Both the position numbers and the translations under genes were made by a program. Of a stretch of 61,961 nucleotides of DNA, positions 40,931-58,987 are shown in pieces. The notes under the pieces are model-generated. The model was not told the origin of the DNA, searched no databases, and worked only from the letters and a program-made list of their open reading frames with translations. Where the stretch lies: positions 1-61,961 of the forward strand of contig CAZCME010000025.1 in NCBI GenBank assembly GCA_964499705.1. The letters run 5' to 3'. How positions within the stretch are numbered: the stretch's first letter is position 1; each line of letters opens with the position of its first letter. This stretch comes from an uncultured bacterium (lineage in GTDB: Bacteria; UBA8481).

Positions 40931-41018
40931 GGGAGGACTCCTTTGGGACTGACGAATCTGGTTCGCGCGCATTATGGCACAACGTGACGAGCGAGGCAAA
41001 CGAGAGTACATTTCTTTC

Positions 41019-41789
41019 ATGGCGCGCATCATCAAGGAGGAATCGACTCTCAAGGGGATCATGAAAGGGCTCCATATGGAGACCTCAATTCTAGAGAAAA
41101 TATGGAAGATCGAGTTGTTCGCCGGCGGTGTCCTGATCCTCGCGGGCGCCGCCGCCTGGTTCTTCGGTTATGCCTGGCACTTCGTCGTTCCCGGCATTCT
41201 GCTGGTATTCCTGGGAGCCTCGCACGCCCTGAAGAAAGGCGATAACCGGGCCGATCTCGGCCGCTTCAAGGGAGGTGCCGCCGGGGAGCAGGAAGTGACG
41301 AAGATCATGCAGACCGGCCTGCCGGATTCCTACATGATCCTGAATGACTGCTCCGTCCGCTCCGGTTCCCGTTCCGCTCAGAACGATCACATCGTTCTCG
41401 GCCCGAACGGCATCTTCGTCGTGGAAACGAAGGCGTATGCGGGAGTTCTGCAGGGGAGAGCGGGAGACGATTATCTTCAGCAGACGAAGACCCGCGGCGG
41501 CAAGTCCACTCAGAACCGGATCAAGAACCCGATTCCCCAGAACGCTTATCACATCGAAATTGTCGCCGCGAGGATGTCGGAGGGCGGATTCGTCACCGAT
41601 GATATCCATTCCATCATCGTCTTCACGAACCGCTGGGCCCGGATCGAGATTGACGGATCCGATGTTCCCGTCCTGAAACCCGAAGAAATCGCATCGACCA
41701 TCCTCAACACGAAATCGAAATTTTCCTACAGCGAATCCTGGCAGCGAAAACTGGCCTCCCATCTCGATCCCGCGGTCAAGTTTGAATAG
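41019..41789 (+). CDS. NERD (nuclease-related) domain membrane protein
   Basis: Two N-terminal TM segments, then GAAGEQEV...QNDHIVLGPNGIFVVETK...NPIPQ. Confidence 0.88.
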   Translation: MARIIKEESTLKGIMKGLHMETSILEKIWKIELFAGGVLILAGAAAWFFGYAWHFVVPGILLVFLGASHALKKGDNRADLGRFKGGAAGEQEVTKIMQTGLPDSYMILNDCSVRSGSRSAQNDHIVLGPNGIFVVETKAYAGVLQGRAGDDYLQQTKTRGGKSTQNRIKNPIPQNAYHIEIVAARMSEGGFVTDDIHSIIVFTNRWARIEIDGSDVPVLKPEEIASTILNTKSKFSYSESWQRKLASHLDPAVKFE

Positions 41790-41891
41790 GGGACATTCTC
41801 CAACATTCCAACATTCACAACTCAAGACTTGCACCCCGATGGGATCTAACTCCATTATTCTGAATGTTGGAATGTTGGAGAATGTCCCCTA
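41787..41891. repeat. Perfect 31-bp inverted repeat between convergent genes (REP-like, possible bidirectional terminator)
   Basis: taggggacattctccaacattccaacattca (41787-41817) is the exact reverse complement of 41861-41891, with a 43-nt spacer. Confidence 0.9.
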
Positions 41892-42134
41892 ATTCAGCTT
41901 GGCGCGGATCCTGTCTTTGACATCCTGGGGCATGGCTGTCTCCGAATCGAAGGAGGACGAATCCGCGCAGCGGTTCAGCAGGGAGCGAAGGAAGGCGAAT
42001 TCCTTGCGGCAGCGGCGGCAGAATGAGCATGTGATGAGATGTGCGCTCAGCGCGAACTTCTCGGCGAACGTGAGGGGGCGTTCCATCGCGATGGACATGA
42101 GACGTGTCGATTCGCGGCAGGAGAAAATATTCAT
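41889..42134 (-). CDS. Zinc-finger (zf-HC2/ZAS) anti-sigma factor
   Basis: SCRESTRLMS...HLITCSFC (HxxxCxxC); ATGA overlap with the ECF sigma gene. Confidence 0.88.
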   Translation of the reverse strand: MNIFSCRESTRLMSIAMERPLTFAEKFALSAHLITCSFCRRCRKEFAFLRSLLNRCADSSSFDSETAMPQDVKDRIRAKLN

Positions 42135-42727
42135 GCGGCGGCTTTTCCGAACCAGGAGCGTTCGAGACAGCGGCGGAGCTGGAGCCGGGAACGATGAAGC
42201 ATGACCCAGAGGTTCGATTCGGTGATGCCGGCCGCGCGGCAGATTTCCTCGGCGGGCAGGTTGTTCATCTCCCGCATCGTGAAGATCCTGAAGAGACGGT
42301 CGGGCAGCATGCGAAGGCACTCCTGGAGCTGGCGGTGAAATTCGCGCCGCTCGAGGATTTCGCCGGGATCGGCGTCCCAGGATGTATCCGCCTCCGCCAA
42401 GTGACCGTCCTTGCGAAAGAAGTCGTCGACGGAAGTGATCGCCGTGTCCTCCTCCGCGCCGACTTTCTCACGGGCCGTCTTCCGGAAATGATCCGCGATC
42501 TTGTGATTGAGGATTCCCACGAGCCATGTCCTCATGGTGGAAGATCCCGTGAATCGGTCGACGGATCGGAGCGCGGCGAGCAGCGTTTCCTGGACCGCGT
42601 CTTCGGCGTCATGCGCGTTCCGCATGCGGAAGCAGGCGTAGCGATACAGGTAATCGCCATGCTCTTCGAGCCACTTCTCGGCGTCCGCTGTGGAACGGTT
42701 CGCGCGGTATTCGGTTGTCTCCGACAT
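42131..42727 (-). CDS. ECF sigma-70 factor (TIGR02943-like)
   Basis: DAEDAVQETLLAA, TWLVGILNHKIAD, FTMRE...EEIC and NLWVMLHRSRLQLRRCLE. Confidence 0.93.
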   Translation of the reverse strand: MSETTEYRANRSTADAEKWLEEHGDYLYRYACFRMRNAHDAEDAVQETLLAALRSVDRFTGSSTMRTWLVGILNHKIADHFRKTAREKVGAEEDTAITSVDDFFRKDGHLAEADTSWDADPGEILERREFHRQLQECLRMLPDRLFRIFTMREMNNLPAEEICRAAGITESNLWVMLHRSRLQLRRCLERSWFGKAAA

Positions 42728-42777: not shown

Positions 42778-42804
42778 GTCGCGCGGAGCGTGTGAGTTCT
42801 TACA
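42778..42804 (-). promoter_or_regulatory. Putative ECF promoter of the sigma/anti-sigma operon
   Basis: Minus strand TGTAAG-N17-CGAC(AAACGA); the same motif occurs upstream of msrAB and DUF1223. Confidence 0.65.
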
Positions 42805-42814
42805 ATGGATTTTC

Positions 42815-42848: not shown

Positions 42849-43631
42849 ATGGATACCATGATTCGCATCTCCTTCGCGGGAGCGGTAGTAACGACGTTTT
42901 TCGCGGCCTCGGCCCTGTATGCCTCCTGGAAGAATGAGGCGACGCCGCTGGAATTATCCGGCACCGAGGGCTTCGCGCTCGTGGAGCTCTTCACATCGGA
43001 AGGATGTTCGAGCTGCCCGTCCGCCGATCGCCTGCTCGCGGATCTTGACGCGAAAGCGCGCGACGAGCGCCGGCCGGTGTACGTTCTCTCCTTTCATGTC
43101 GATTACTGGAACCGCCTCGGGTGGCGCGATCCGTACAGCCAGGCGGACTATTCCGCCCGGCAATCCGCTTACGCGTCGAAGTTCGGAAGCTTCGGTGTCT
43201 ACACCCCGCAGATGATCGTGAACGGGAGGACGGAATTCGTCGGCTCGGACCGGGCCCGGGCGGTTCGGGAAATCGATGCCGCCCTGAAGAAACGCGTTCC
43301 GGTTTCCCTCCGGATTACCGCGAAGGAAAGCGCCGCGTCGGGCATTGAGATTCATTACACGGTGACCGGTCTCGAGTTGACGGCGCTCCTGCATGTCGCG
43401 CTTGTCGACGACGAACGCGTGGTGCCCGTGTCGAGCGGCGAGAATGGAGGTCGAACGCTCCGGCATGTCAACGTGGTCCGCGCGTTCAAGACGGTGACGG
43501 TCGACCGGAACGCCACGGGAACGGTCACGATCGAGAGACCGGCCACGGGCCGGGTGCCGGGACGGATCATCGCGTATCTCCAGGACCCGGCCGGATATGA
43601 AATCGAGGCGGCAGCCGCGGCGGAAATCTGA
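42849..43631 (+). CDS. DUF1223 thioredoxin-like exported protein
   Basis: Signal/TM segment, VELFTSEGCSSCPSAD, SFHVDYWNRLGWRDPY, YTPQMIVNG and GENGGRTLRHVNVVR. Confidence 0.9.
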   Translation: MDTMIRISFAGAVVTTFFAASALYASWKNEATPLELSGTEGFALVELFTSEGCSSCPSADRLLADLDAKARDERRPVYVLSFHVDYWNRLGWRDPYSQADYSARQSAYASKFGSFGVYTPQMIVNGRTEFVGSDRARAVREIDAALKKRVPVSLRITAKESAASGIEIHYTVTGLELTALLHVALVDDERVVPVSSGENGGRTLRHVNVVRAFKTVTVDRNATGTVTIERPATGRVPGRIIAYLQDPAGYEIEAAAAAEI

Positions 43632-43712: not shown

Positions 43713-44678
43713 ATGAGAAAAGCGCCCATCGTCGCCCTCTTAATCCTGCTGGCCTTTGTCATCGATTCGGAAGTCGGGGCGGAAGCGCCCTATGAGAGTT
43801 TCCCCGCGCCGGATTTCACGAGAGGTGAGCGGGGTGACGTCGGGGAATTTTCCATCGGCATGTACACGCACTTTCGCCGCTTCGATGCTCTCATCAGTGG
43901 ATCGAAGCGCGTCGCGAACACCAGGGATATTCACCACGAACGCTGGATTCCCGCGTTGATCCTCGACTACCGATTTACCGAGCGATTCGCGGTCTCCGTG
44001 AAGGCTCACGGCGCGAGCATCCGCACGAATCTCCTGGATAACGACCTCGTGACGCGCCGCATCAACAATACGACGATTCCAGGAGATGTCTTCGTCTACG
44101 GAATCTGGCATCCCTGGCTGGAAAAGGACCCGAACGCGCCGTATTCCTTCTGGGATCGCCGCAATCTCGGCTTCGTCGCGGGGCCCAAGTTCGATTTCGA
44201 CCGCGAGGATCCGCAGGTCGGCGTGGCGCCGGGAGCGGATTTCCGCCATGGGCCTTTTGGCGCCGGATCCAACGAGGCGCTGGCCGGTTTTGTCTACACC
44301 GGCCATATCAATGACAAGATCTGGCTGTATCATTATTCGCAGTACCTGATTCCGCTCGACAGGAACGTCTTCGGCATGAAGCCGGGCGAGCGCTATGAAT
44401 CTCAACTCCTGGGAATTTCCTACCTGCCCAACGACGTCGTCCAGCTCTTCTGCTCGGTCAACGCCGGCTACGAGTGGAGCGGCAGCGGCGGCCGAATCGC
44501 GAGCGCGCCCGCGAATACGGGCGGGACGAAGGTGTTCCTCAATCCCGGCATCACCGCGGATTTCGCGCATGGCTGGGGCACCGAAATCTCCGTGAATTAT
44601 CCCCTGTACGGAAATCTCCACGGCATCCAGCTCGAAGGGCGCGAGGATCTCTTCTTCGGGTTCTACAAGACGTTCTGA
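43713..44678 (+). CDS. Probable outer-membrane beta-barrel protein (transporter-like)
   Basis: Signal peptide, aromatic amphipathic strands, NTGGTKVFLNPGI and a C-terminal FFGFYKTF ending in Phe. Confidence 0.65.
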   Translation: MRKAPIVALLILLAFVIDSEVGAEAPYESFPAPDFTRGERGDVGEFSIGMYTHFRRFDALISGSKRVANTRDIHHERWIPALILDYRFTERFAVSVKAHGASIRTNLLDNDLVTRRINNTTIPGDVFVYGIWHPWLEKDPNAPYSFWDRRNLGFVAGPKFDFDREDPQVGVAPGADFRHGPFGAGSNEALAGFVYTGHINDKIWLYHYSQYLIPLDRNVFGMKPGERYESQLLGISYLPNDVVQLFCSVNAGYEWSGSGGRIASAPANTGGTKVFLNPGITADFAHGWGTEISVNYPLYGNLHGIQLEGREDLFFGFYKTF

Positions 44679-45946
44679 CGCACCGCGAGCGTCGAGGCGA
44701 TCCACACGGTTACCGTGACGAGCAAAATCCCGGCTGTCCATATTTCCGGCAGCCCCAGCACGAACGTCATGAGGATGATCGCGCCCGCGGCAAAAACGAC
44801 GCCGGCGCGGGTCACGACGCCGTCCAGGAGCAACTTGATCGCACCGAGCCGGTCGGGTTCGACGCGGGCCAGGAGTTTTTCGGCCGCCGCCTCGTGAAGG
44901 GAATCCGACAGACCCTCCTTCATGATCTGGACGATATAGATGACGGCCAGGAGCTTATAGAAGAGAAAGATCGCCGCGCCGAAGAAGAGCGCCAGCGGCA
45001 GAACCAGGAGCGCGGACAGGAGACCGAATTTCCGGATGATGCGCTCCGCGCCGAAGGACAGGACGATCAGCGAAAACGAGTAAAGGTAGATGTAGAAGTT
45101 GGAGAAGAATTCGACGAATCCCGTCGCCGACGATTCTCCCTGTTCGCCGATGATCCAGTAGAAGAAATAGTCCAGGATGACGAGCGAAGCGCCGGCGGCG
45201 AAGAAAAGCGGCGCAAGACGGGCGATTTTCCGGTCCGTCCTGATCCAGTTCCACGATTCGGACCATGTCAGCTTCTTCTTCTCCACGTCCGGAGAAGCGG
45301 CCGTGCCGGCGAGAAACCGGCGTTCCGCCGCGATGACGAGCGGCAGATCCAGGAAGATCGCGCCCGCGATGACGAACATGAAATGATCGCGGATGGATTC
45401 GAAACGTCCGCCCAGTCCGTCCATGAGCAGAGGCGCAGCGGCTCCGGAGAACCAGGATCCGAAGAGGCCTCCCGCCATGATCGACGCCGCGGCGTATCGC
45501 ATGCCCCGTGCCGTGTCGGGCCCGGAAAAAAGATGTCCCACGCGGACGAAGAGATTGGCCCAGAGCAGCACGAAGACGAGCTCGAGCGCGACGAAGTAGA
45601 CAATGTACGTGGATCGGATCGTCTCCAGCCAGAACTCATGCCGCCCCGCGTCCCCGCGCGAGAATTCCTCCGCCTGGAAAAGCTTGTACGTGAGGAAGCG
45701 GAAGCAGGCGAAGAAGAGACCGGCCGCGATCGTCGTCATGATCTGCCATCGCGCGGCGCTCGCCTTCGCCTGCATCCTGACCTGCGTGGCGGCGACCGGC
45801 ACGGTGAGGAATGCGATGGTCATCAAGGGCACCGGGACGAACTGGTAGCCGACGTTGCACGTGAGCGAGCAGTCGCGGATGATGTCGCCCATGCCGTTGG
45901 CCATCCCGAGGAGAAACCCGGAAGCGATGATGAGGAAGATTTCCAC
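44663..45946 (-). CDS. MFS-like membrane protein, Npt/TLC nucleotide-carrier-like (paralogue A)
   Basis: About 12 TM segments; RDCSLTCNVG, DYFFY, FFSNFY and IIRKFGL; clear paralogue at 51175-52446. Confidence 0.7.
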   Translation of the reverse strand: MEIFLIIASGFLLGMANGMGDIIRDCSLTCNVGYQFVPVPLMTIAFLTVPVAATQVRMQAKASAARWQIMTTIAAGLFFACFRFLTYKLFQAEEFSRGDAGRHEFWLETIRSTYIVYFVALELVFVLLWANLFVRVGHLFSGPDTARGMRYAAASIMAGGLFGSWFSGAAAPLLMDGLGGRFESIRDHFMFVIAGAIFLDLPLVIAAERRFLAGTAASPDVEKKKLTWSESWNWIRTDRKIARLAPLFFAAGASLVILDYFFYWIIGEQGESSATGFVEFFSNFYIYLYSFSLIVLSFGAERIIRKFGLLSALLVLPLALFFGAAIFLFYKLLAVIYIVQIMKEGLSDSLHEAAAEKLLARVEPDRLGAIKLLLDGVVTRAGVVFAAGAIILMTFVLGLPEIWTAGILLVTVTVWIASTLAVRQNVL

Positions 45947-47621: not shown

Positions 47622-48965
47622 TTGGCTCCTACGACCCAGGGGATGGCGGAACGCTTCCAGGCGCTCGAACAATACCCTGAGCTGGATCGGGAGCTCCTGG
47701 ATCGTCTGCGTGCCTGGATCGAGTCGGCTCCCGATCCCGCGCTCTTTCGCGTCAATCTCGTCCCCTGGAGCGCGGAATGGGATGTGCCGCTCTCCAAGGC
47801 GATCCTGCACTTTCTGCATCTGACGCGGCATGGCGTGATGGAGCTCTCCCTCGATGTCCACTGTCCGCATTGCAACGTCGTCCTGAACCGAGCCTCCACG
47901 CTGAAGGCGGCTCAATCGCGCCACTACTGCCAGTACTGCCTGAAGGATGTCGAATCGAAGTTCGACGACAATTTCGAAGTGACGTTCACGATCAGCGGCA
48001 GTCTCCGGACTGTGAAGGGATACGTCGGCTATGAGCCGTCGTCGAACGTCGAGATCTATCTCCGGTCGAAGGTGGAGCCTGGTGCGACGACGGAGCTGCG
48101 CGTCGAACCTCCCGCGCATGCGCGCCTCCTGCGGCTCGTTTCGTGGCCGCCCGTCCACGTGCATGTCGCTCCGGTCGAACCCGCGGGTCCGAAGGACCAG
48201 GATCTCATCCTGCCGGATGAACTGCCGGAGGGCATCACCGGCGTCGCGGAAGGAACGTTCACGCTCAGGGTGAGAAACACGAGCCGTGTCGCCCGGAGCT
48301 TGATGATCGAGAACCACGAGATGAGGGAGTACGAGCCGCACGAGGTGAAACCCCGTCTTTCGGGCCTCCAGGTCGCGATACATCCCGCGTTCGAGAAACT
48401 TTTCGGAGGCGACACGCTGTCGGAGCGGGAGTCACTCCGGATCCGCGACATCACCGCCGCTTTCACCGACATCCAGGGGTCCACGGCCTTCTATGAGAAA
48501 TGGGGGGACGTGCGCGCCTACAATATCGTGCGCGATCACTTCGAGATTCTCTTCGCGGAGATCGAGAGCCGAGACGGCGTGGTCGTCAAGACGATGGGGG
48601 ACGCCGTGATGGCGGCTTTCATCCATGCGAGCGACGCGGTTGGAGCGCTCCTTGCCATTCAAGGCGCCATGATGCGCTTCAACAGGGACAGGAAGATGGA
48701 GGACGGCATCTTCATCAAGTCGGGACTCCATCGCGGCAGCGCGATTCTTGTCAGCCTGAACGGCCGGAACGATTATTTCGGAACGACGATCAACGAGACG
48801 TCGAGGATCCAGAAATTATCTGAAGCCAACAAGATTGTTATGTCGGACCCGGTGTATCAATCAGCAGGCGTGAAAAACATCCTCGAACAAGCCCGGGTGG
48901 AATCTTTCGAGACGCGACTGGCCGGGCTGGAAAAGAAATACACGCTTCATCGCGTCAGCGCGTAA
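47622..48965 (+). CDS. Class III adenylate/guanylate cyclase with N-terminal DUF5939-like region
   Basis: N-terminal CPHC/CQYC and EVTFTI; catalytic FTDIQGST, KTMGDAVM and NDYFGTTINETSR. The start is TTG 47622 or ATG 47643. Confidence 0.9.
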   Translation: MAPTTQGMAERFQALEQYPELDRELLDRLRAWIESAPDPALFRVNLVPWSAEWDVPLSKAILHFLHLTRHGVMELSLDVHCPHCNVVLNRASTLKAAQSRHYCQYCLKDVESKFDDNFEVTFTISGSLRTVKGYVGYEPSSNVEIYLRSKVEPGATTELRVEPPAHARLLRLVSWPPVHVHVAPVEPAGPKDQDLILPDELPEGITGVAEGTFTLRVRNTSRVARSLMIENHEMREYEPHEVKPRLSGLQVAIHPAFEKLFGGDTLSERESLRIRDITAAFTDIQGSTAFYEKWGDVRAYNIVRDHFEILFAEIESRDGVVVKTMGDAVMAAFIHASDAVGALLAIQGAMMRFNRDRKMEDGIFIKSGLHRGSAILVSLNGRNDYFGTTINETSRIQKLSEANKIVMSDPVYQSAGVKNILEQARVESFETRLAGLEKKYTLHRVSA

Positions 48966-49896
48966 ACCTCCGGCAGAAGTTCCAGAGCTCCACGTTGGCG
49001 TCGATGACATTCGTATAGGGACCCATGATGAATTCCGGCAGCTTCGGTTTCTGACCGGGCCATCCATGCCCGGCGCCGGTGAGCCTGATGAGGACGACTT
49101 CGCTTCCGTTCCGGCCGCCCGTCCAGGTGATGCGCTGCGCCGTGTGGGGCTTGGCGCGGCGGGAGGAACGCCACGTGATGATCGTTCCGATTTTCGGATT
49201 TCGAGAACAACCGTTCTGCCTGACCCACCAGGCCATCAATTCGTCCACATTGGCATGGTAGGATGCATCGGTGGCGCCGATCAGATATTTCGGTCCGTAC
49301 CCACCGTTGTAGGCGGCACGCGGATCGTCGACGCTGTGGATATGGAGAACGGGAACGGAACGGGAAGGCGTGACGGTCGTATCGAGCGAGGCGCCGCAAA
49401 CTTCCACCACCGCGGCCACGAGGTCGGATGCCTCCCGGGCCAGCCGGTCGCACATCATGGCTCCGTTCGAATGGCCGCACGCATAGACGCGCTTCCGATC
49501 GATCGATGTGCGTGACGCGAGATCGTCGATGATCGCTCGCGTGAATCCGACATCGTCGGCATTGTTGACCATGGCGTAACCGCAGCAGGTCCGGGCGTTC
49601 CATGTGAGGATCTTCCTGCGCCTCCGGCCCGTTCCTGCGGGATAAACGACGATGAAGCCTTCACTGTCGGCGAGAGCATCGAGCCTGTAATCCTTCTGCA
49701 TCTCATCCGGAGTTCCGCCTCCGCCGTGAAAGGCCAGGAGGACGGGCAGCGGCTTGCCGTGGGATGCCTGCGGGGGAAGATGAACGAGGTAATACCGTTC
49801 CGCGGAACCGATCCGGATATCGAATTCGTGGTTGCCTGTTGCCAGGGGAGAAGCGGCGATGAGCGCATGCCACTGGAGAAGAAGGAGCATCAACAT
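48955..49896 (-). CDS. Exported alpha/beta hydrolase, PHB depolymerase/LpqC-like esterase
   Basis: AFHGGGG, VVYPAG, WNARTCCG, DDVGF, nucleophile GHSNG and GAGHGWPG. Confidence 0.9.
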   Translation of the reverse strand: MLMLLLLQWHALIAASPLATGNHEFDIRIGSAERYYLVHLPPQASHGKPLPVLLAFHGGGGTPDEMQKDYRLDALADSEGFIVVYPAGTGRRRRKILTWNARTCCGYAMVNNADDVGFTRAIIDDLASRTSIDRKRVYACGHSNGAMMCDRLAREASDLVAAVVEVCGASLDTTVTPSRSVPVLHIHSVDDPRAAYNGGYGPKYLIGATDASYHANVDELMAWWVRQNGCSRNPKIGTIITWRSSRRAKPHTAQRITWTGGRNGSEVVLIRLTGAGHGWPGQKPKLPEFIMGPYTNVIDANVELWNFCRRFTR

Positions 49897-49950: not shown

Positions 49951-51027
49951 TTATTCGAATGTAAGCGCCGCTGAATTGATGCAGTACCGCAGGCCGGTCG
50001 GTCGGGGACCGTCGTCGAAGACGTGGCCGAGATGAGCGGAGCAACGGCTGCAGCGGACCTCCGCGCGCGTCATGCCGTGGCTTTTATCCGTGATGCTCTC
50101 GAGCGCGGACCGATCCACCGGCATCCAGAAGCTCGGCCATCCGGTACCGGATTCGAACTTCGCCGTGGAGACGAAGAGTTCCTGTCCGCACCCGGCGCAG
50201 GAGAAAGCCCCGATATCGTGATGATCCCAGTATTTTCCGGTGAAGGCGCGTTCCGTGCCGGCCTTGCGAATGACCTTGAATTGCTGGGGTGTCAGAATCG
50301 CCTGCCATTCCTTTTCCGTGACGCTCTGCCAGTATTCGCGCGTCTCGTCGGCTCCCGGAGGAACCATGCTCGTATCGGCGTCTCTCGATGGCGCATGGCA
50401 TGATCCTCCGCCCGATTTTTCGTAGTACTGCTGATGATAGTCCTCGGCTGGATAAAACATTCCCTCTGCCTGGATCTGGGTCCCGACTTTGTCCGTGCCG
50501 AGTCGCGCGGCCCGCCGCGCTCCTTCTCTCAAGCGAGATAATCGCGCCACCACAGCCTGCTTCGGGGTTGTCGTGAAGATGACCGAGCGGTACTGGCTCC
50601 GCGTGTCCTCCTCGGCCGGCGGCGTGTGGCTCGACCAGAAAACCTGCAGCAGACGGTCGTAGGAGACGCGCGACGGATCGTACGTCACCTCGACGACCTC
50701 GGCGTGGCCGGTCACATGCGAGCAGACATCTTCGTACGTGGGATTCATGCGCGTGCCTCCGGAATACCCGGCGCGCGTGGAGACGACGCCGTCGATCGAC
50801 CGGAACAGTGCCTCCACGCCCCAGAAGCATCCCGCTCCGAAGACGGCTTTCTCCGTTACGGCCGTCGGGGTTTCACGCGGCGAGCCGGCCGGTTTCACCG
50901 CGGTGGAAGTGAGCGCGGGGCCGGTCTGGCCGGAGCGGGCTAGGGAGAGGGCGGGTCGGAAAGCGGCGAACAGGATCCCCGCCGTTGCGAGAACGGAGGC
51001 TAACAGAATGAGCTGAGCATGATTCAT
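49951..51027 (-). CDS. msrAB: Exported bifunctional methionine sulfoxide reductase MsrA-MsrB
   Basis: N-terminal signal/TM; MsrA motifs GAGCFWG, GHAE and FYPAEDYHQQY; MsrB motifs GTERAF, GWPSF, HLGHVFDDGP and RYCINS. Confidence 0.96.
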   Translation of the reverse strand: MNHAQLILLASVLATAGILFAAFRPALSLARSGQTGPALTSTAVKPAGSPRETPTAVTEKAVFGAGCFWGVEALFRSIDGVVSTRAGYSGGTRMNPTYEDVCSHVTGHAEVVEVTYDPSRVSYDRLLQVFWSSHTPPAEEDTRSQYRSVIFTTTPKQAVVARLSRLREGARRAARLGTDKVGTQIQAEGMFYPAEDYHQQYYEKSGGGSCHAPSRDADTSMVPPGADETREYWQSVTEKEWQAILTPQQFKVIRKAGTERAFTGKYWDHHDIGAFSCAGCGQELFVSTAKFESGTGWPSFWMPVDRSALESITDKSHGMTRAEVRCSRCSAHLGHVFDDGPRPTGLRYCINSAALTFE

Positions 51028-51057: not shown

Positions 51058-51083
51058 GTCGCGACGCACAAAGCTATCTTACA
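51058..51083 (-). promoter_or_regulatory. Putative ECF promoter of msrAB
   Basis: Minus strand TGTAAG-N16-CGAC(AGAACGA), followed by an AAGGAG RBS and ATG 51027. Confidence 0.7.
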
Positions 51084-51174
51084 ACTTTGCCGTTGTTAAT
51101 TCTGAAAGACCGCCCTTCTCCGTGATTCCGGCTCGCCCGATTCGGGCACGTCAGCTAGAATGAGGAAACGCCCG

Positions 51175-52446
51175 ATGAACAACCGCAGCCGCCTTGGATT
51201 CGCCCTCGCTCCTGCGCTACTGCTCGGCCTCACTTACGGATTGGGCCAGATCGTCCGGGATTGTTCCCTGACGTGCAACGTCGGCTTTCGCCTTTCGCCG
51301 ATCGTATTCCTCCTGATCTCGCTCCTCTCCTTCGGAGTCGTCTCCCTCCAGATCCGCATCGTTTCCCGATTCGACGCCAGCTGCTGGTGGATCGGATGCG
51401 CGGGCGGCGGCGCCCTGCTCATTCTCGTGTTTCGCGGTCTGACATTTCTTCTTCTATCCGGTGATCCTTCAACGGGGAAGGAGGCGCTGCAGGCCGTCTA
51501 TATCGGATTCTATGTCGTCCTGGAGCTGCTCTTCGCTCTGCTCTGGAACAACCTCTTCGGATTCGTGAGGAGGCTCTTTCCGGACGAGGTTAAGGGTGGA
51601 CGCATGTTCGGTTATGTCTCCGCTTGCGTTCTTGTCGGCAGCCTGGCCGGCGCCTGGCTGGGAGGCGAGCTTGCGCCGATTCTGATGAGGTCTTTCCCCG
51701 ATCGATTCGAGCAGATCCGGGATCATCTCATGTTCGCCATGGCCGCGAGCCTGCTTCTGTCGATCCCGATCCTCGCCGCCGGCGCGCGCGCTTCCGGGGC
51801 GAAGACCGCGGGCCCCGGGACGAAAATCGAGGAGTCTTTCGGGCTGGGCACCGCGTGGTCGTGGGTGAAATCCGACTCGCGGATGAAGCGCATGGCCTGG
51901 ATTTATCTTCTCACCGGAAGCTCCGCGATCTTCATGGATTACATCTTCTACTGGGTCATCAGCCAGCAGGCGGAAGGTGGCAGCGTCGGGCTCGTCGGAT
52001 TCTTCTCGAACTTCTACATCTATTTGAGCGGCATGACCCTTTTGCTTCTCCTGTTCGGAGCAGGGCGGTTGTCGCGCCGGTTCGGAGACACGGCCGGTCT
52101 CTTGATTTTGCCTGCAGTGCTCTTGCTGGGAACCGGCGGACTCCTCGCGTTCGTGAACCTTCGCCTTTTGTCCGGAATCAGGATCATGGAGAAGAGCCTG
52201 AAGAAATCGATCTACGAGCCATCGACGGAGTCCCTGTTTCAACAGCTCGATCCCGAGCGCTATTCGGTGCTGCGCCCGGTGCTCGACGGCTTCTCCAAGA
52301 GAATAGGGGAGGCCGCCATTTCGATCGCCCTCCTGGGTTTCCTTCTGTTCCCGGATCTGCCGATCCGAGCGGCTCTCGGCCTGCTGCTCTTCATCCAGGC
52401 TGCATGGCTCATCGCCGTGCTTTCACATCGACGTTCGGCGCGCTGA
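51175..52446 (+). CDS. MFS-like membrane protein, Npt/TLC nucleotide-carrier-like (paralogue B)
   Basis: Shares RDCSLTCNVG, RFEQIRDHLMF, DYIFYW and FFSNFYIYL with 44663-45946. The start is 51160 or 51175. Confidence 0.7.
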   Translation: MNNRSRLGFALAPALLLGLTYGLGQIVRDCSLTCNVGFRLSPIVFLLISLLSFGVVSLQIRIVSRFDASCWWIGCAGGGALLILVFRGLTFLLLSGDPSTGKEALQAVYIGFYVVLELLFALLWNNLFGFVRRLFPDEVKGGRMFGYVSACVLVGSLAGAWLGGELAPILMRSFPDRFEQIRDHLMFAMAASLLLSIPILAAGARASGAKTAGPGTKIEESFGLGTAWSWVKSDSRMKRMAWIYLLTGSSAIFMDYIFYWVISQQAEGGSVGLVGFFSNFYIYLSGMTLLLLLFGAGRLSRRFGDTAGLLILPAVLLLGTGGLLAFVNLRLLSGIRIMEKSLKKSIYEPSTESLFQQLDPERYSVLRPVLDGFSKRIGEAAISIALLGFLLFPDLPIRAALGLLLFIQAAWLIAVLSHRRSAR

Positions 52447-52506
52447 TCTGATCCGCTTAGGCGGAGACTGTTAAATCGAAGCGCTCGATTTCCTGCTTAA
52501 TTCCGA

Positions 52507-53094
52507 TCAGCCCCCGATCAAAGGAAGAAGGGGAGTATTGATGGTGGTGACGCTTCCCGGGTTGACCTGAAGCCATCGGTAGTTCGGATCGTTCACCGTG
52601 GTCGGCTGGTAGCTCTGCCATCGACCAACGGAATCCATCGTGCGAAACCATGTGGTGACGATGAGGTCTCCAATATCTTCTCTCGCGGTGCCGTAGGGCA
52701 GGTAGATTCCGACTTCCGGATTGCCTTCCCAAAGTCCGTTTATTCCCTGCGGCGCCTGGACCATGGCATGTCCGAGGACTTCGCTGGTCACCTTGTTGTG
52801 GACGCTGATGATGAAGGCGATCTGCAGAACCGTGTCGTGGATGGCTTCCAACCTGTACGGCAGGGTCAATGTCACGTCATAGGGCCGGATATTGCCCGTC
52901 GCGCCCGCTCCGATCGCGGAGAGTTGAACCACCTCGATCAGGGATAACTGCACGTTATATTCGACCGCGGTCGGCTGGATCATCGCCGTCGTCACCTGGG
53001 ACACAACCATGTTCATGGGGGACGCCTCCGCCTTCAAAGGTGTCGCCAACAGTGCCAGTACAACGAGGAAAGGTGCGATGAGAATATTTTTCAT
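52507..53094 (-). CDS. Secreted hypothetical protein (beta-rich)
   Basis: AAGGAG RBS and signal peptide MKNILIAPFLVVLALLATPLKA. Confidence 0.7.
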   Translation of the reverse strand: MKNILIAPFLVVLALLATPLKAEASPMNMVVSQVTTAMIQPTAVEYNVQLSLIEVVQLSAIGAGATGNIRPYDVTLTLPYRLEAIHDTVLQIAFIISVHNKVTSEVLGHAMVQAPQGINGLWEGNPEVGIYLPYGTAREDIGDLIVTTWFRTMDSVGRWQSYQPTTVNDPNYRWLQVNPGSVTTINTPLLPLIGG

Positions 53095-53141
53095 GTTCGT
53101 TCTCCTTGAGGAAATGGAATGAATGTCGACGGATGTCATGA

Positions 53142-54050
53142 CTATTGCCCTCGCGTTCCGAAGCCGCTGATCCTCGGGATTGTCACGCGGACCGGTTGGA
53201 ACGGTCCGGCATTGACGATCAGCGAGAAGTTGGGCAGTTCCATGATCTGAGCTGCACCGCAGGCGGAACAATTGCCGGCGACGAGTCGAACTCCATACGC
53301 GGCCCGAGCGGAATTGTTCTGCGCATTGAAGGTGACAACGCGGCTCGTGTTGGAACCGGATACGACTCCCAGCGTCACGAAGACGTCACCCTGCTGCTGT
53401 CCCGTTGCGGTGTCGTAAAGAAAAGCGCTCGTGAGGTTGTGGAGATTCGTGCCCTGAAGGATCACTTCAACATAGGGACTGGTTATCGGCGTGAGAGCGG
53501 CGCTCGACATCAGGGCGCCGCCCGATGTCGTGACATGGGTGATCGTCGGCCTCGCCGCCGCCGCTTCCAATTCCGCGGCCGCCGCTGCCGCCGCTGCCGC
53601 TGCCGCCACCGCCGCCGCCGTTGCCTCCGCGGTATTGGTCGATGGCGCGGAGACGGTGATGGTGAAGCCAGGAATCGTCTGCTCCTGGGTTCCGTTGAAG
53701 AATCGGACCACAAGTCCCGTGGCGGCCGGTGACTGGTCGGAGACTCTGAAAGAGCAGAGGCGTGAGTTGATCGTGGCCGTGGACGCAGGCTGGATCATGA
53801 CGCTGATGTCGGCTCGCCTTGCGAAGGAGACGGGATCATAGACAAAGACATCTCCGAGTTCATTGAGATTTGACCCCTGCAGATAGACTCCGGCCTGGGA
53901 ACGGGTCTGATCGAGCGGTGCAAGCTCGATGAGCGAGGTTGGGCCGGTTCCGTCATCCTTCGCCACAATAGTGATCATCGGTTCGGCGTGTACAGCCGCT
54001 ACCGCGAGCATGACAGCGCTCCATGCCATTAAACATCGATTCATCTTCAT
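53142..54050 (-). CDS. Secreted protein with two internally duplicated Ig/IPT-like domains and a poly-Ala linker
   Basis: GGAGGAG RBS and signal peptide; VYLQGSNLNELGDVFVYD versus VILQGTNLHNLTSAFLYD; Ala run encoded at about 53550-53630. Confidence 0.75.
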   Translation of the reverse strand: MKMNRCLMAWSAVMLAVAAVHAEPMITIVAKDDGTGPTSLIELAPLDQTRSQAGVYLQGSNLNELGDVFVYDPVSFARRADISVMIQPASTATINSRLCSFRVSDQSPAATGLVVRFFNGTQEQTIPGFTITVSAPSTNTAEATAAAVAAAAAAAAAAAELEAAAARPTITHVTTSGGALMSSAALTPITSPYVEVILQGTNLHNLTSAFLYDTATGQQQGDVFVTLGVVSGSNTSRVVTFNAQNNSARAAYGVRLVAGNCSACGAAQIMELPNFSLIVNAGPFQPVRVTIPRISGFGTRGQ

Positions 54051-54087
54051 AGACTCCTCCTGAGCTTGACCGTGCTGTTGATGATTC

Positions 54088-54113
54088 ATCGTAGATCGTA
54101 AGCAAACCTTACG
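54088..54113 (-). promoter_or_regulatory. Possible ECF promoter of the 54050/53094 secreted-protein genes
   Basis: Minus strand CGTAAG-N16-CGAT, directly after the terminator U-tract; a weaker match to the TGTAAG-N16/17-CGAC motif. Confidence 0.4.
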
Positions 54114-54114
54114 C

Positions 54115-54147
54115 AAAAAAAAAGGGACCCCGCCGCGCGGGGTCCCT
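54115..54147 (-). terminator. Intrinsic terminator downstream of the Met-rich gene
   Basis: GC-rich stem gggaccccgc/gcggggtccc with a 3-nt loop and nine U on the minus strand, 17 nt after the stop codon. Confidence 0.9.
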
Positions 54148-54163
54148 CCGATACTCTCGAAGC

Positions 54164-54979
54164 TCAGCGATACGCCGTCATCGACTTCATCTTCATCTTG
54201 CCGGTCATCATCGACATCCCGTCCATCATCTTCGACATGTCCATCATCATCTTGCCCATGTCGCCGGCCATCATGCCGCCCATCTTGCCCATCATCATGG
54301 ACATCATCTTCATCTGGTTCATCATGCCGGTCTTCATGTCGCCGCTCATCATCATGGCGCCCATGTTCCCGTGCATCATCTTCGACATGTCCATCATCAT
54401 CTTGTTCATGTCGGTCATCATCGGCATCATGTCGCCGGTCATGCCCATGCCCATCATCTTCATGCCGTGCATGTTCATCATCATCTTCGACATGTCGCCC
54501 ATCATCATGCCCATCTTCGCCATCATCATCTTCGCCATGTCATCGGACATCATCATCGACATGTCGGACATCTCGTTCATCTTCCCCATGTCCATCATCA
54601 TCTTGGACATCTTCCCCATCATCATCGACATGTCGCCCATCGACATGGAGCCCATGGGCATCTCGCCCATTGTCATCATGCCCATGTCGCCCATCATCTT
54701 CGACATGTCCATCATCATCTTCCCCGACCCCATCGGCATGGCCATGCCCATGTCGCCCATCATCTTCGACATGTTCATCATCATGTCGGCCATGTTCATC
54801 ATGGACATCTTATCCATGTTCATGCTCATCTTCGACATGTCCATGTTCATCTTGGACATGTCGCCCATCATATCCATGGGCATGTTGCCCATCATCTCCT
54901 CGGCGGCGACGTTCGGCGCAAAGCCGCACATCAAGGCCAGCGCGATCGTCGGGATCGCGCGTCGGGTACAGTAACTCAT
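54164..54979 (-). CDS. Secreted methionine-rich repeat protein
   Basis: AGGAGG RBS, signal peptide and its own terminator. About 114 Met in the 243 residues after the leader (hand count), arranged in DMSKMMM-type heptads. Confidence 0.85.
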   Translation of the reverse strand: MSYCTRRAIPTIALALMCGFAPNVAAEEMMGNMPMDMMGDMSKMNMDMSKMSMNMDKMSMMNMADMMMNMSKMMGDMGMAMPMGSGKMMMDMSKMMGDMGMMTMGEMPMGSMSMGDMSMMMGKMSKMMMDMGKMNEMSDMSMMMSDDMAKMMMAKMGMMMGDMSKMMMNMHGMKMMGMGMTGDMMPMMTDMNKMMMDMSKMMHGNMGAMMMSGDMKTGMMNQMKMMSMMMGKMGGMMAGDMGKMMMDMSKMMDGMSMMTGKMKMKSMTAYR

Positions 54980-55005
54980 AACTACCTCCTGTGATTTATA
55001 TTACA

Positions 55006-55042
55006 GCCGCTTCAATTTAGCGGCGGACTTCAGCCGGATCAA
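55006..55042 (-). promoter_or_regulatory. Possible sigma70 promoter of the Met-rich gene with overlapping dyad
   Basis: Minus strand TTGATC-N17-TAAATT; the inverted repeat gccgct-N7-agcggc (55006-55024) brackets the -10. Confidence 0.4.
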
Positions 55043-55084
55043 AAATATTACTTATTCCTTTGGTTCAGCGGTTTTTCACCTCCT

Positions 55085-56059
55085 TTAAGGGGTTGCCTTA
55101 GGGCATTGGACCAGATTCTTTAAAAGGGCGCGAAAGGCCGTCATCGGAACTTCGCGCCGGTTGAACCGGAAGACGAATTCGTCCAGGTACTGCTGGAGAT
55201 ATCTCGGGGTGACGCCTCGATGTGTTACCAGGAGCCAGGATTTCAGTTCTCCGAAGGCCTTATGGATATGCGGGAAGCGCGTCGCGGCCTCGTGCGGCGA
55301 CCCGACGGCCCGGATGCGATGCCGGTACAGGGTCAGGATCTTCGGGGAAAGACTCAGTCGCCCGTTCGTCCGGATTTTCGATCCCGCTTCGACGTTTCCC
55401 ATCAGGAAGGCCTCCAGCGTCGACGCTCTCTGATCCGGTATCACGGCAAGTTTCAGGCGTCCCGGCGCCTCACGGCGCCGGCCGCGCGCATCGCGACGCG
55501 TGACGACCTCCACCGCTCCGACAACCAGGTCGCCTCCTCCGGCTCCCGGCGCACGGCTTCCTGCGCGAGCTTCCTCGTGGAGCAGCGTCACGTAGACGCG
55601 GACGGTTCCGGTCAGCTTCTCCAGCGACTCCGTGACCATGTTGCTTCGGAGACGGCGCAGGAGGTTCCAGGCGCTCCTGTAATTCGCCAGGTCCAGCTCT
55701 TTCTGCAGTTGAAGCGCGCTGATGCCCGGGAGCCGTGTCGCCACAAGATACGCCGCCAGGAACCAGCTCTCGATCGGAACGTGCGAACGGTGCATGGCCG
55801 TGCCGGCTGTCGGTGAAACCTGGGTTCGGCATGCACGACACTGATAAGCCGGTCGCGTTCGGAGTAGTGCCGCTGACCGGCTTTGGCACCGGGGACAGAC
55901 GAACCCGTGCGGCCATCTCAATGTCGCGACATATTCCAGACACGTCGGGGCGGATGAAAACTTGCGGCGAAACGCGGCGAAGTCCGCGGTTCTATCCGGC
56001 TGCATTTTCGCGGAGCGGCTTCGAGAGTTCGGAAATAAGTCAGGAGCCTGCTTTTTCAT
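55085..56059 (-). mobile_element. IS1595-family (ISXO2-like) transposase homologue with substituted catalytic residues
   Basis: LRWPHGFVCPRC...YQCRAC...TAGT zinc ribbon, ISALQLQKEL and YLDEFVFRFNRR. No terminal inverted repeats recognised. Confidence 0.85.
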
Positions 56060-56184
56060 GAAATGCCTTTCCACGCAATTGAACGTGGAAAAGAGTCGGA
56101 CTCATCGTCACGAGCTTACAAAGAAAAGCTCCGCTGGATCCCTATGAGATTCGGTTCCCCCCCCCGGAGCTGCAGACGGCACTC

Positions 56185-56985
56185 CTATTTTTTAAACCAC
56201 GCCCGCGCTTTTCGCAGACTCACGGCGACATATTCCGCATCCGAGGAGAAGACCTCCAGCGTGACCGTGCGCTTATATCCCATCTTCTTCAGGTGCCCGA
56301 TCTCCGTGGGCCAGTCGATCGTGCCCGCGCCGAGAGGCATGTGCGCGTCGACGTCGCCGCGGTTGTCGGAGATATGAACGTGCATCAGGCGCTTGCCGTA
56401 GCGGCGGCAGAACTCGTTCGTGACATTCTCGCGGCCTGACAGATTCGCGTGGCCGATGTCGAGATGAAAGCCGAGCGCGGGGACTTTGTCGAAGAGAGCG
56501 TCGAGCGTTTCGAACTGGTCGGGCCGGCCGTGGAAATGTTCCAGCACGATCTGCACGCCCATCGCGCCGGCTTCCTCGGAGACGTATCGCAGCGTCTCGA
56601 CCTGGGCGTCGATGGCCGCCTGGAGCCCGATGTATTTCGCGACGGCGGCGTGGATGTGATACGTCATCGTCTTCGCGCCGAGCGTAGAGAAGTGACGGGC
56701 GGCCCACAGCAGGGACTCCGCAACGCCGCGGCGGACTTCCGGGTAAGCGGCGTTGCCGTGGAGATGCCAGCCGGTGTGGCCGACGATGCCGAGGCCGGTC
56801 TTGTCGAAGGCGCGCTGGACGGGGGCGAGCTTGAACGTCTCAAACCCGGCGCCCGGCGGTTCGAGCGTCAGGTCGACAAAATCAAAGCCCATCTTCTTCG
56901 CCTTAAGGATCTCGGGAACCGGATCGAGAGCCGGATGATTCATCATGCCGAATGTAACCTGCTGCTTCATGGTTTTGGATTTCAT
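56185..56985 (-). CDS. Sugar phosphate isomerase/epimerase (xylose-isomerase-like TIM barrel)
   Basis: GFDFVDL, IVLEH, FHLDIGHAN, HVHISDN...DAHMPLGAGTIDW and TLEVF; TATAAT lies 6 nt before the ATG. Confidence 0.88.
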   Translation of the reverse strand: MKSKTMKQQVTFGMMNHPALDPVPEILKAKKMGFDFVDLTLEPPGAGFETFKLAPVQRAFDKTGLGIVGHTGWHLHGNAAYPEVRRGVAESLLWAARHFSTLGAKTMTYHIHAAVAKYIGLQAAIDAQVETLRYVSEEAGAMGVQIVLEHFHGRPDQFETLDALFDKVPALGFHLDIGHANLSGRENVTNEFCRRYGKRLMHVHISDNRGDVDAHMPLGAGTIDWPTEIGHLKKMGYKRTVTLEVFSSDAEYVAVSLRKARAWFKK

Positions 56986-58740: not shown

Positions 58741-58808
58741 TCATGAAGTGATACACGCGGAAGCGGGGAATGGCGGGCCGGCAAAATACAAGACCAAATA
58801 CAAATATA

Positions 58809-58980
58809 GTCCCGCCGCTGCCGTGGTGCGTTTCATTTATGGACCCTGTAGAGACAGGTGGGCGCCCCAGGCCGGTTCAGCTTACCTTCCCGGAGGAAAG
58901 CGTCGCGTTCCCGCCATATCAGGCTCCCGTCCAAAAAAATGTTGGGTCAAAAAATCAACGCTCCGCGCACAGCGCAGGAC
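58809..58980 (-). ncRNA. ssrS: 6S RNA
   Basis: 172-nt rod with pairs GTCCTGC/GCGGGAC, GCTGT/GCAGC, GCGTT/AACGC, GACCC/GGGTC and GGGAGCC/GGCGCCC. It has a central bubble AACATTTTTTT and the 6S-like CACCTG...CAGGGTCCA...CGGCA segment. Confidence 0.85.
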
Positions 58981-58987
58981 CACATCC

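Follow-up and report, generated by a model that had tools for sequence, protein, structure and literature searches.

In the literature covered, MrpX and BcrX, which work with MsrP-type reductases, are the only documented cases of sacrificial buffering of oxidants by methionine (Met) in the cell envelope (PMC4436054; PMC8315932). MrpX of Azospira suillum is a periplasmic, Met-rich protein under extracytoplasmic function (ECF) sigma control; its oxidation by hypochlorite and its re-reduction by an envelope methionine sulfoxide reductase (Msr) were shown (PMC4436054). The same sacrificial role was proposed for BcrX of Brucella melitensis, which belongs to an ECF sigma-controlled regulon (PMC8315932). 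The MsrAB enzyme is controlled in Neisseria, according to the available text of the source, by sigmaE and the zinc-finger anti-sigma (ZAS) protein MseR, from a promoter with the -35 element GTMAGBWTT, a spacer of 12-13 nt, and the -10 element CGTCTAAH (PMC2893595). Likewise, the accessible parts of two further sources describe how RpoE2 and the 67-aa ZAS protein HrsE of Haemophilus influenzae induce periplasmic MsrAB, rpoE2 being upregulated on hypochlorous acid (HOCl) or H2O2 (PMC7907618; review PMC13488963). Here, we describe a Met-rich gene from an uncultured bacterium of the UBA8481 lineage (contig CAZCME010000025.1, assembly GCA_964499705.1), located in a stretch of 61,961 nucleotides, called below the window, together with an msrAB fusion gene and an ECF sigma/ZAS pair. 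A short promoter-like motif stands upstream of all of them, in the case of the Met-rich gene beyond an intervening transposase gene, and we tentatively propose that the Met-rich protein is an oxidant sink that MsrAB could recharge.

The gene and its signals are the following.

54164..54979, minus strand: Met-rich open reading frame (ORF) of 271 aa including a signal peptide (ORF list, composition, codon bias)
54899..54979, minus strand: signal peptide, residues 1-27 (read from translation and hydropathy)
54985..54990, minus strand: Shine-Dalgarno sequence AGGAGG, 5 nt ahead of the ATG
54121..54149, minus strand: intrinsic terminator, 13-bp stem followed by a T-run (terminator scan)

A preliminary description of this DNA, made from its letters, had claimed for the gene a ribosome-binding site, a signal peptide with an arginine pair, and a dedicated terminator, and all three stand. 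The AGGAGG reads 54990..54985 toward the ATG; the putative signal peptide shows, by inspection, an arginine pair at residues 6-7, a core of hydrophobic residues, and a cleavage-type site, VAA|EE; and the hairpin with its T-run at 54149..54121, which holds nine G-C pairs in the stem, is the sole terminator-like site that a scan of positions 52400 to 56200 detected. The weakly twin-arginine-translocation-like character also claimed for the signal peptide is owed to TRR, because the protein matched none of the models in Pfam (E ≤ 0.01) and NCBIfam (E ≤ 1), whatever their kind; the region reads T-R-R-A-I-P, as against S/T-R-R-x-F-L-K. The whole protein contains 116 Met, and 114 of them fall within the mature part (residues 28-271), which makes 46.7% of its 244 residues. 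The claim of about 47% Met with 114 Met, 2 His, and no Cys in the mature region was thus exact except for its length, given as 243 residues. The two His are residues 171 and 203, and both Cys of the protein are located in the signal peptide. The mature part also has 30 Gly, 23 Lys, 21 Asp, 21 Ser, and 10 Asn; it is 27.6 kDa with a pI of 7.0, and its 24 basic and 24 acidic residues amount to 19.7% charged. When 31 other genes of the window were pooled, their Met content was 2.5%. Rfam models near the gene gave no riboswitch or other family and only sub-threshold terminator-like and C/D-box-like noise; the sub-threshold matches to archaeal C/D-box snoRNA at 54162..54355 on the minus strand are a composition artefact of ATGATGA-rich coding DNA.

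The regulatory evidence comes from a sigma/anti-sigma gene pair and from a motif found three times.

42131..42727, minus strand: ECF sigma factor (TIGR02943, 174.6 bits against a cut-off of 162.2; Sigma70_r2 and r4_2 domains)
41889..42131, minus strand: ZAS-type anti-sigma factor, 80 aa (NF052368, 55.5 bits against a cut-off of 50; zf-HC2, E 1.2e-3)
42778..42805, minus strand: motif copy upstream of the ECF sigma gene (pattern scan), where autoregulation is likely
51058..51084, minus strand: motif copy upstream of msrAB (pattern scan)
56095..56121, minus strand: third motif copy, TTGTAAG-N16-CGAC, pointing toward the transposase and Met-rich genes (pattern scan)

The start of the anti-sigma gene overlaps the stop of the sigma gene by 1 nt, and the ZAS motif is complete (C6-x25-H32-x3-C36-x2-C39). 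The three promoter regions were aligned by eye on TTGTAAG. Those of msrAB and of the ECF sigma gene both include TTGTAAGA and, 14-15 nt further on, GCGACA(G/A)A(A)CGA. The pattern TTGTAAG-N16/17-CGAC occurs exactly three times in the 62 kb, both strands considered, while 100 shuffled versions contained it 0.02 times on average and none reached three. All three copies are intergenic, lie on the minus strand, and stand upstream of minus-strand genes. A looser promoter pattern gave one extra match, at 7229 on the minus strand, which falls inside the span of a plus-strand ORF and was taken as chance. The sigmaE promoter of Neisseria has the geometry GTMAG-N16/17-CGTC, and the candidate motif differs from this consensus by one base, its -10 element being CGAC. 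The third copy is located (56121..56095) in a gap of 110 nt that separates the start of the transposase gene from the stop codon of a gene for a TIM-barrel protein. In the scan of positions 52400..56200, no terminator-like site turned up from this copy as far as the Met-rich gene; the first is at 54149, past the gene. A scan for sigma-70 promoters gave no match ahead of the gene on the minus strand. The motif would be the promoter that the ECF sigma factor recognises, and transcription from the third copy would continue across the transposase gene to the Met-rich gene.

Two genes flanking the sigma/anti-sigma pair can be mentioned here. Divergent from the ECF sigma gene (42858..43631, plus strand) is the gene for a DUF1223 protein that begins with a signal-peptide-like segment and has CSSC, a CxxC motif, in ELFTSEGCSSCPSAD; it is a candidate for an envelope thiol-redox partner of MsrAB. 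A protein with a nuclease-related (NERD) domain and an N-terminal membrane segment is encoded at 40974..41789 on the plus strand, adjoining the anti-sigma gene.

The neighbourhood of the Met-rich gene includes a transposase gene and msrAB.

55085..56074, minus strand: complete IS1595-family transposase gene (DDE_Tnp_IS1595 and Zn_ribbon_IS1595; NF033547, 120 bits against a cut-off of 75)
49951..51027, minus strand: msrAB fusion gene (PMSR, 5e-49; SelR, 1e-49), with an N-terminal hydrophobic segment

The distance from msrAB to the Met-rich gene is 3137 nt. The preliminary description spoke of an exported msrAB at 3 kb, and the two domains and the distance were both found; export is likely, judging by residues 4-22 of MsrAB, which are hydrophobic and are followed by a Pro/Thr/Ala-rich linker. 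A comparison of msr with cop/sil genes in the neighbourhood, suggested in the same description, came out on the side of msr: among 54 ORFs of the window scanned with Pfam, no gene for copper, silver, or other heavy metals was found. Nor was a domain of MsrP type (molybdenum oxidoreductase) or of YedZ type found among them. The transposase gene, which shares the strand of the Met-rich gene, is its immediate upstream neighbour. An esterase gene (48955..49896, minus strand) begins 55 nt downstream of msrAB and is, as the two share a strand at this distance, probably co-transcribed with it; its product passes the model for extracellular short-chain polyhydroxyalkanoate (PHA) depolymerases (NF050058, 155 bits against a cut-off of 150). 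The genes at 44663..45946 (minus strand) and 51160..52446 (plus strand), one of them divergent from msrAB, encode polytopic membrane proteins that are paralogues, each about 428 aa long; the proteins have RDCSLTCNVG, RFE(Q/S)IRDH, and FFSNFYIYL in common and gave only weak matches to major facilitator superfamily and nucleoside triphosphate exchanger models. Downstream of the Met-rich terminator are two ORFs, 53142..54116 and 52507..53271 (both minus strand), with signal-peptide-like N-termini and no family match, the first consisting of two similar halves with a poly-Ala linker between them. A 6S RNA is found at 58805..58983 on the minus strand (RF00013; score 67.1 bits, gathering threshold 46.4).

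On the most economical view, msrAB and the Met-rich protein would form a single oxidant-stress regulon with the sigma/anti-sigma pair. We favour the proposal that the Met-rich protein is a sacrificial oxidant sink recycled by MsrAB, MrpX-like in action and outside the MrpX family, although our confidence in it stays slightly below an even chance. Oxidants of the hypochlorite type, or others, would oxidise the 114 thioethers to methionine sulfoxide in the cell envelope, and envelope-associated MsrAB, the gene of which is 3.1 kb away, would reduce the sulfoxides back to methionine. The small cytoplasmic zinc-finger anti-sigma factor would hold the ECF sigma factor, and this one sigma factor would switch on the Met-rich gene, msrAB, and the regulator itself. 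The proposal is supported by the composition of the mature protein, with two His and no Cys, and by the lack of copper or silver genes among the scanned ORFs; by analogy, it is also supported by the precedent of ECF-controlled periplasmic Met-rich scavengers recycled by Msr (MrpX and BcrX). The preliminary description had left three functions side by side: an oxidant sponge, a soft-metal sponge, and a sulfur store. The first is strengthened by the motif that msrAB and the ECF sigma gene have in common with the DNA upstream of the Met-rich gene; nothing was found in favour of the third.

Searches for relatives of the Met-rich protein gave little. The word-indexed protein search yielded 1442 candidates of 149-475 aa, none with E ≤ 0.001 and none even with E ≤ 10. 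A phmmer search against 1.84 billion representatives of any length returned a single match, P0001 (E 1.3e-4), a repeat protein of 1072 aa that is not Met-rich and was judged spurious. In a control for this search, the protein itself scored 7e-133, a copy with 40% of its residues resampled 1e-51, and one with 60% resampled 1e-7, whereas shuffles preserving composition only, with the signal peptide kept, reached E ≤ 0.001 in 3 of 20 cases; relatives in register should therefore be detectable by phmmer, and look-alikes in composition only should not. Among genome contigs, none of 12 pattern matches was confirmed by tblastn, which low-complexity masking may explain. The Protein Data Bank gave phmmer noise only (E about 2). 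The ESM Atlas contains an identical sequence (predicted local distance difference test score, pLDDT, 0.52), possibly from the same sample, which is the only other sighting of the protein; its Atlas neighbours were unnamed clusters with feature scores ≤ 0.80, and no usable named match was among them. In the full-text literature, with subscription journals outside the coverage, no bacterial protein of comparable Met content was found. A match to an already characterised family, which would have counted against the preliminary description, was thus not found: no family model, solved structure, or credible relative matched. AlphaFold2, run on the single sequence, gave six helices of 12-45 residues and one short one, with Gly/Pro-rich breaks between them, at low confidence (pLDDT 56; predicted template modelling score 0.22), so that the "Met-lined helical" claim is no more than a lead.

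The protein is periodic, and the periodicity is real but degenerate. The unit had been described as a DMSKMMM heptad; the seven-residue period exceeds shuffled controls, but exact DMSKMMM is present once and DMSKMM four times, and the underlying unit is a degenerate MDMSKMM. Fourteen non-overlapping units fit MDMSKMM at five or more of seven positions (2000 shuffles: mean 3.6, maximum 9), and identities at lag 7, excluding Met, number 22 against 9.5 ± 2.9 in 5000 shuffles. A Fourier test over the whole protein gave no significant signal at period 3.5 or 7, presumably as a result of indels that throw the units out of register. Met is evenly spaced, with no run longer than three and no gap longer than four. 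Tandem Repeats Finder reports a period of 21 nt with the minus-strand consensus MDMSKMM and a match of only 60-74%; the repeats are therefore old and diverged, with no sign of perfect-repeat collapse.

A further question is whether the ORF is a gene at all. It might be young, decaying, unexpressed, or artefactual, an expanded ATG-rich repeat that is open by chance and whose expression an insertion sequence may have ended. This explanation draws on the orphan status of the protein (no relatives in three protein searches), the transposase gene directly upstream, the sole other record being an identical and perhaps same-sample Atlas entry, and the plus strand, which is open across the repeat in all three frames. 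Against it, a strong ribosome-binding site, a non-repetitive signal peptide, and a terminator of its own would not be expected together by chance; the repeats have diverged, yet the 23 Lys and 11 Asn codons all end in G or C; and the short Met runs and gaps point to constrained spacing. We consider it improbable. Codon use agrees: for the non-Met codons of the Met frame, the G+C content at third positions (GC3) is 0.94 against a background of 0.76, with AAG for 23 of 23 Lys, AAC for 11 of 11 Asn, and GAC for 18 of 21 Asp, and such an extreme bias fits a protein needed in bulk. The plus strand could instead carry the real gene. Its His-rich frame (54371..54994; 87 His in 207 aa) has a GC3 of 0.32, as against 0.76 for the genes of the genome, and its Ile-rich frame (54198..54974; 74 Ile in 258 aa) has a GC3 of 0.97. 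Composition cannot choose between the Met and Ile frames, because third positions are common to both; however, the Ile frame begins at a TTG within the repeat, with no ribosome-binding site in the preceding 25 nt, and only the minus strand has a ribosome-binding site, a non-repetitive signal peptide, and a terminator in the correct orientation. A reserve of methionine or sulfur is a further suggestion, which Met density alone would suit and which, for an exported protein, has no support from gene context. A plus-strand gene or such a store is, to our judgement, highly improbable.

Several observations weigh against the oxidant sink as proposed. No relative was found, and conservation accordingly supports no function. 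The gene and msrAB belong to separate units, with a divergent membrane-protein gene and two signal-peptide-like ORFs without family match between them. No basic residue precedes the hydrophobic segment of MsrAB and Arg residues follow it, a charge pattern that would equally fit a membrane-tethered cytoplasmic enzyme. The third motif copy may be a promoter of the transposase gene only, or the Met-rich gene may have been separated from it by the insertion. The ends of the IS1595 element were not located by repeat searches: inverted or direct repeats did not exceed shuffled controls, and no similar DNA was present in the plasmid collection. The putative promoter assignment depends on a motif with CGAC rather than the Neisserial CGTC, and the mature protein has far fewer charged residues than MrpX.

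The most serious objection comes from other genomes. A DNA scan for MDM[S/T/G/A..]KMM, one genome per species, gave at least 120 loci, with flanks for 80 of them. Among the matches listed, the highest Met content of a motif-bearing ORF of at least 100 aa is 28%, and 15 of the 120 reach at least 15%. Twenty of these 120 were chosen by eye for a Met-rich motif ORF, the other 100 being ordinary proteins or very short frames, and 59 ORFs from 19 of the 20 (L090 was left out) were scanned with Pfam. Nine of the chosen loci have flanks and a motif protein with a signal-peptide-like N-terminus, and five of the nine lie beside explicit copper genes, with one more beside a P-type ATPase gene.

L058: cupredoxin and CusS-type kinase (neighbours, Pfam)
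L044, L009, and L020: multicopper oxidases (neighbours, Pfam)
L040: HMBD/YHS P-type ATPase and CusF (neighbours, Pfam)
L014: P-type ATPase (neighbour, Pfam)

The neighbours of L006, L066, and L043 include no explicit copper domain. DUF305 proteins account for five of the nine (L014, L040, L006, L066, and L043), and the protein of L044 is an LTXXQ protein. CopM also belongs to DUF305, and Pseudomonas CopA has repeats of the D-H-S-K-M type. In the 14 loci with scanned flanks, no msr gene was found within about 2 kb. The copper context, together with this lack of msr, speaks more strongly than anything else for a metal role and against the oxidant sink, although the link is a seven-residue motif rather than homology. 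In this alternative, the protein would be a sponge or buffer for Cu(I)/Ag(I), in which clusters of Met thioethers, with Asp nearby, would bind soft monovalent ions in the envelope, and metal binding may fold the chain into helices, by analogy with SilE. For CueO and CusF, the available text of one source describes Ag(I)/Cu(I) sites that consist of Met only or are rich in Met (PMC5008109). Several facts of the locus point the other way: no heavy-metal gene was found among the scanned ORFs of the window, the only regulatory motif found ties the Met-rich gene to msrAB, and the two His contrast with the ten conserved ones that SilE and PcoE each use. The motif is not metal-specific either, as it is also present in five cytoplasmic phasins. 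No DUF305, LTXXQ, or CusF model matches the Met-rich protein, while proteins of other genomes that have the motif do match DUF305 and LTXXQ in the same Pfam library. The soft-metal option of the preliminary description thus gains from the recurrence of the motif beside copper genes elsewhere and loses from their absence among the scanned ORFs of the window; we regard it as rather unlikely, though as deserving more weight than any other alternative to the oxidant sink. The oxidant and metal readings are compatible with each other.

The phasins form a second class of motif proteins, cytoplasmic and with a (DMSKMM)n N-terminus; all five are Phasin_2 proteins. They are alphaproteobacterial (L079, L037, L013, L021, and L069, with the motif at about 2001-2057 of the 4-kb loci) and carry 3-7 tandem hexapeptides of DMSKMM type ahead of the phasin domain. 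They raise the possibility that the Met-rich protein is an amphipathic binder with a flexible face of Met bristles, acting as a periplasmic holdase or as a coat for a hydrophobic polymer such as PHA. On a helix, the heptad would put three Met in an arc of 100 degrees, with D and K (i, i+3) opposite; the helices predicted at low confidence by AlphaFold2 are in line with such a binder, as is the PHA-depolymerase-type esterase gene next to msrAB, and the M domain of SRP54, of the signal recognition particle, offers an analogy. On the other side, the phasin repeat is short and lies outside the Phasin_2 domain, the protein matches no family, direct evidence from context is lacking, and, to our knowledge, 47% Met is far above any known chaperone or phasin. 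Such a binder seems to us more doubtful than a decaying ORF, and a function outside all those considered here is only slightly easier to credit.

A bolder extension of the oxidant sink, which we hold to be improbable, is an envelope redox capacitor, in which a Met-lined helical or condensed protein would store 114 two-electron equivalents per chain. The reduced state would be hydrophobic, helix-forming, and possibly Cu(I)/Ag(I)-binding; oxidation to sulfoxide would make the protein hydrophilic and disordered, until MsrAB returned it to the first state. The scavenging of oxidants, the buffering of soft metals, and a change of physical state would in this way be coupled in one orphan protein under the sigmaE/ZAS switch, and a scavenger partner of such a switch has not been reported so far in the literature covered, some of it available in part. 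If the oxidant sink is correct, then the sacrificial strategy arose independently, in an unrelated protein of about 47% Met paired with MsrAB and a sigmaE/ZAS switch. Composition rather than sequence would then define the protein class, so homology-based annotation would miss its members, and the protein would be a natural dense polythioether for the study of Met oxidation, substrate handling by Msr, and thioether metal binding. If the protein is instead a copper or silver binder, a nearly His-free sponge would be unusual as well.

Known metal-binding proteins show both likenesses and differences. SilE and PcoE are, according to the available part of the source, exported, low-complexity proteins that change from disordered to helical on binding, Met taking part in the binding of Ag(I)/Cu(I) (PMC5008109). 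They have 10 or 15 Met each along with their conserved His, which stand in repeated His/Met motifs, in contrast to 114 Met here, and the Met-rich gene has no sil, pco, or cus neighbours and its product no sequence match to them. The DUF305, LTXXQ, and small secreted proteins of copper loci (Bosea, Aureimonas, Zobellella, Acetobacteraceae, and Pyrinomonadaceae) are also secreted and have MDM[S/T/G/A]KMM, but as a short N-terminal segment in proteins of 15-28% Met, attached to a folded domain or encoded beside copper genes, whereas here the motif fills the protein. The copper storage proteins of the Csp family (PF03860) are four-helix bundles lined with Cys and share the idea of a bundle lined with sulfur ligands, and the low-confidence Atlas model aligns with a Csp cluster at a template modelling (TM) score of 0.65 on the Csp side; the mature protein, however, has no Cys and no Pfam match, and with a query-side TM of 0.36-0.39 and a model pLDDT of 0.52, this is a lead only.

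Two kinds of redox system can also be compared. With MrpX and BcrX, of the MrpX/MsrP and BcrX/BcrQP systems, the protein has in common a putative signal peptide, Met richness, and low complexity. MrpX has 20% Met and 44% charged residues, compared with 46.7% and 19.7% in the 244-aa mature part here, and the MXKDX pentapeptide of MrpX and BcrX has no counterpart, as there are no M.KD. matches and no KD dipeptides. Their molybdoenzyme MsrP/YedY is encoded in the same operon (msrPQ/yedYZ), whereas the enzyme here is a thiol-type MsrAB in a separate unit, and the anti-sigma factor here is a small ZAS protein. In this last respect, the locus resembles the sigmaE-MseR-MsrAB system of Neisseria and the RpoE2-HrsE-MsrAB system of Haemophilus: a gene for a small cytoplasmic ZAS anti-sigma factor comes after that of the ECF sigma factor, msrAB stands apart as a target of its own, the motif is also found upstream of the sigma gene, and the geometry, GTMAG-N16/17-CG(T/A)C, is common, with a promoter role here that is predicted. 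The -10 element differs, being CGAC here and CGTC there. In the available text of the sources, no Met-rich scavenger is reported in those regulons, whereas the third motif copy here points at one.

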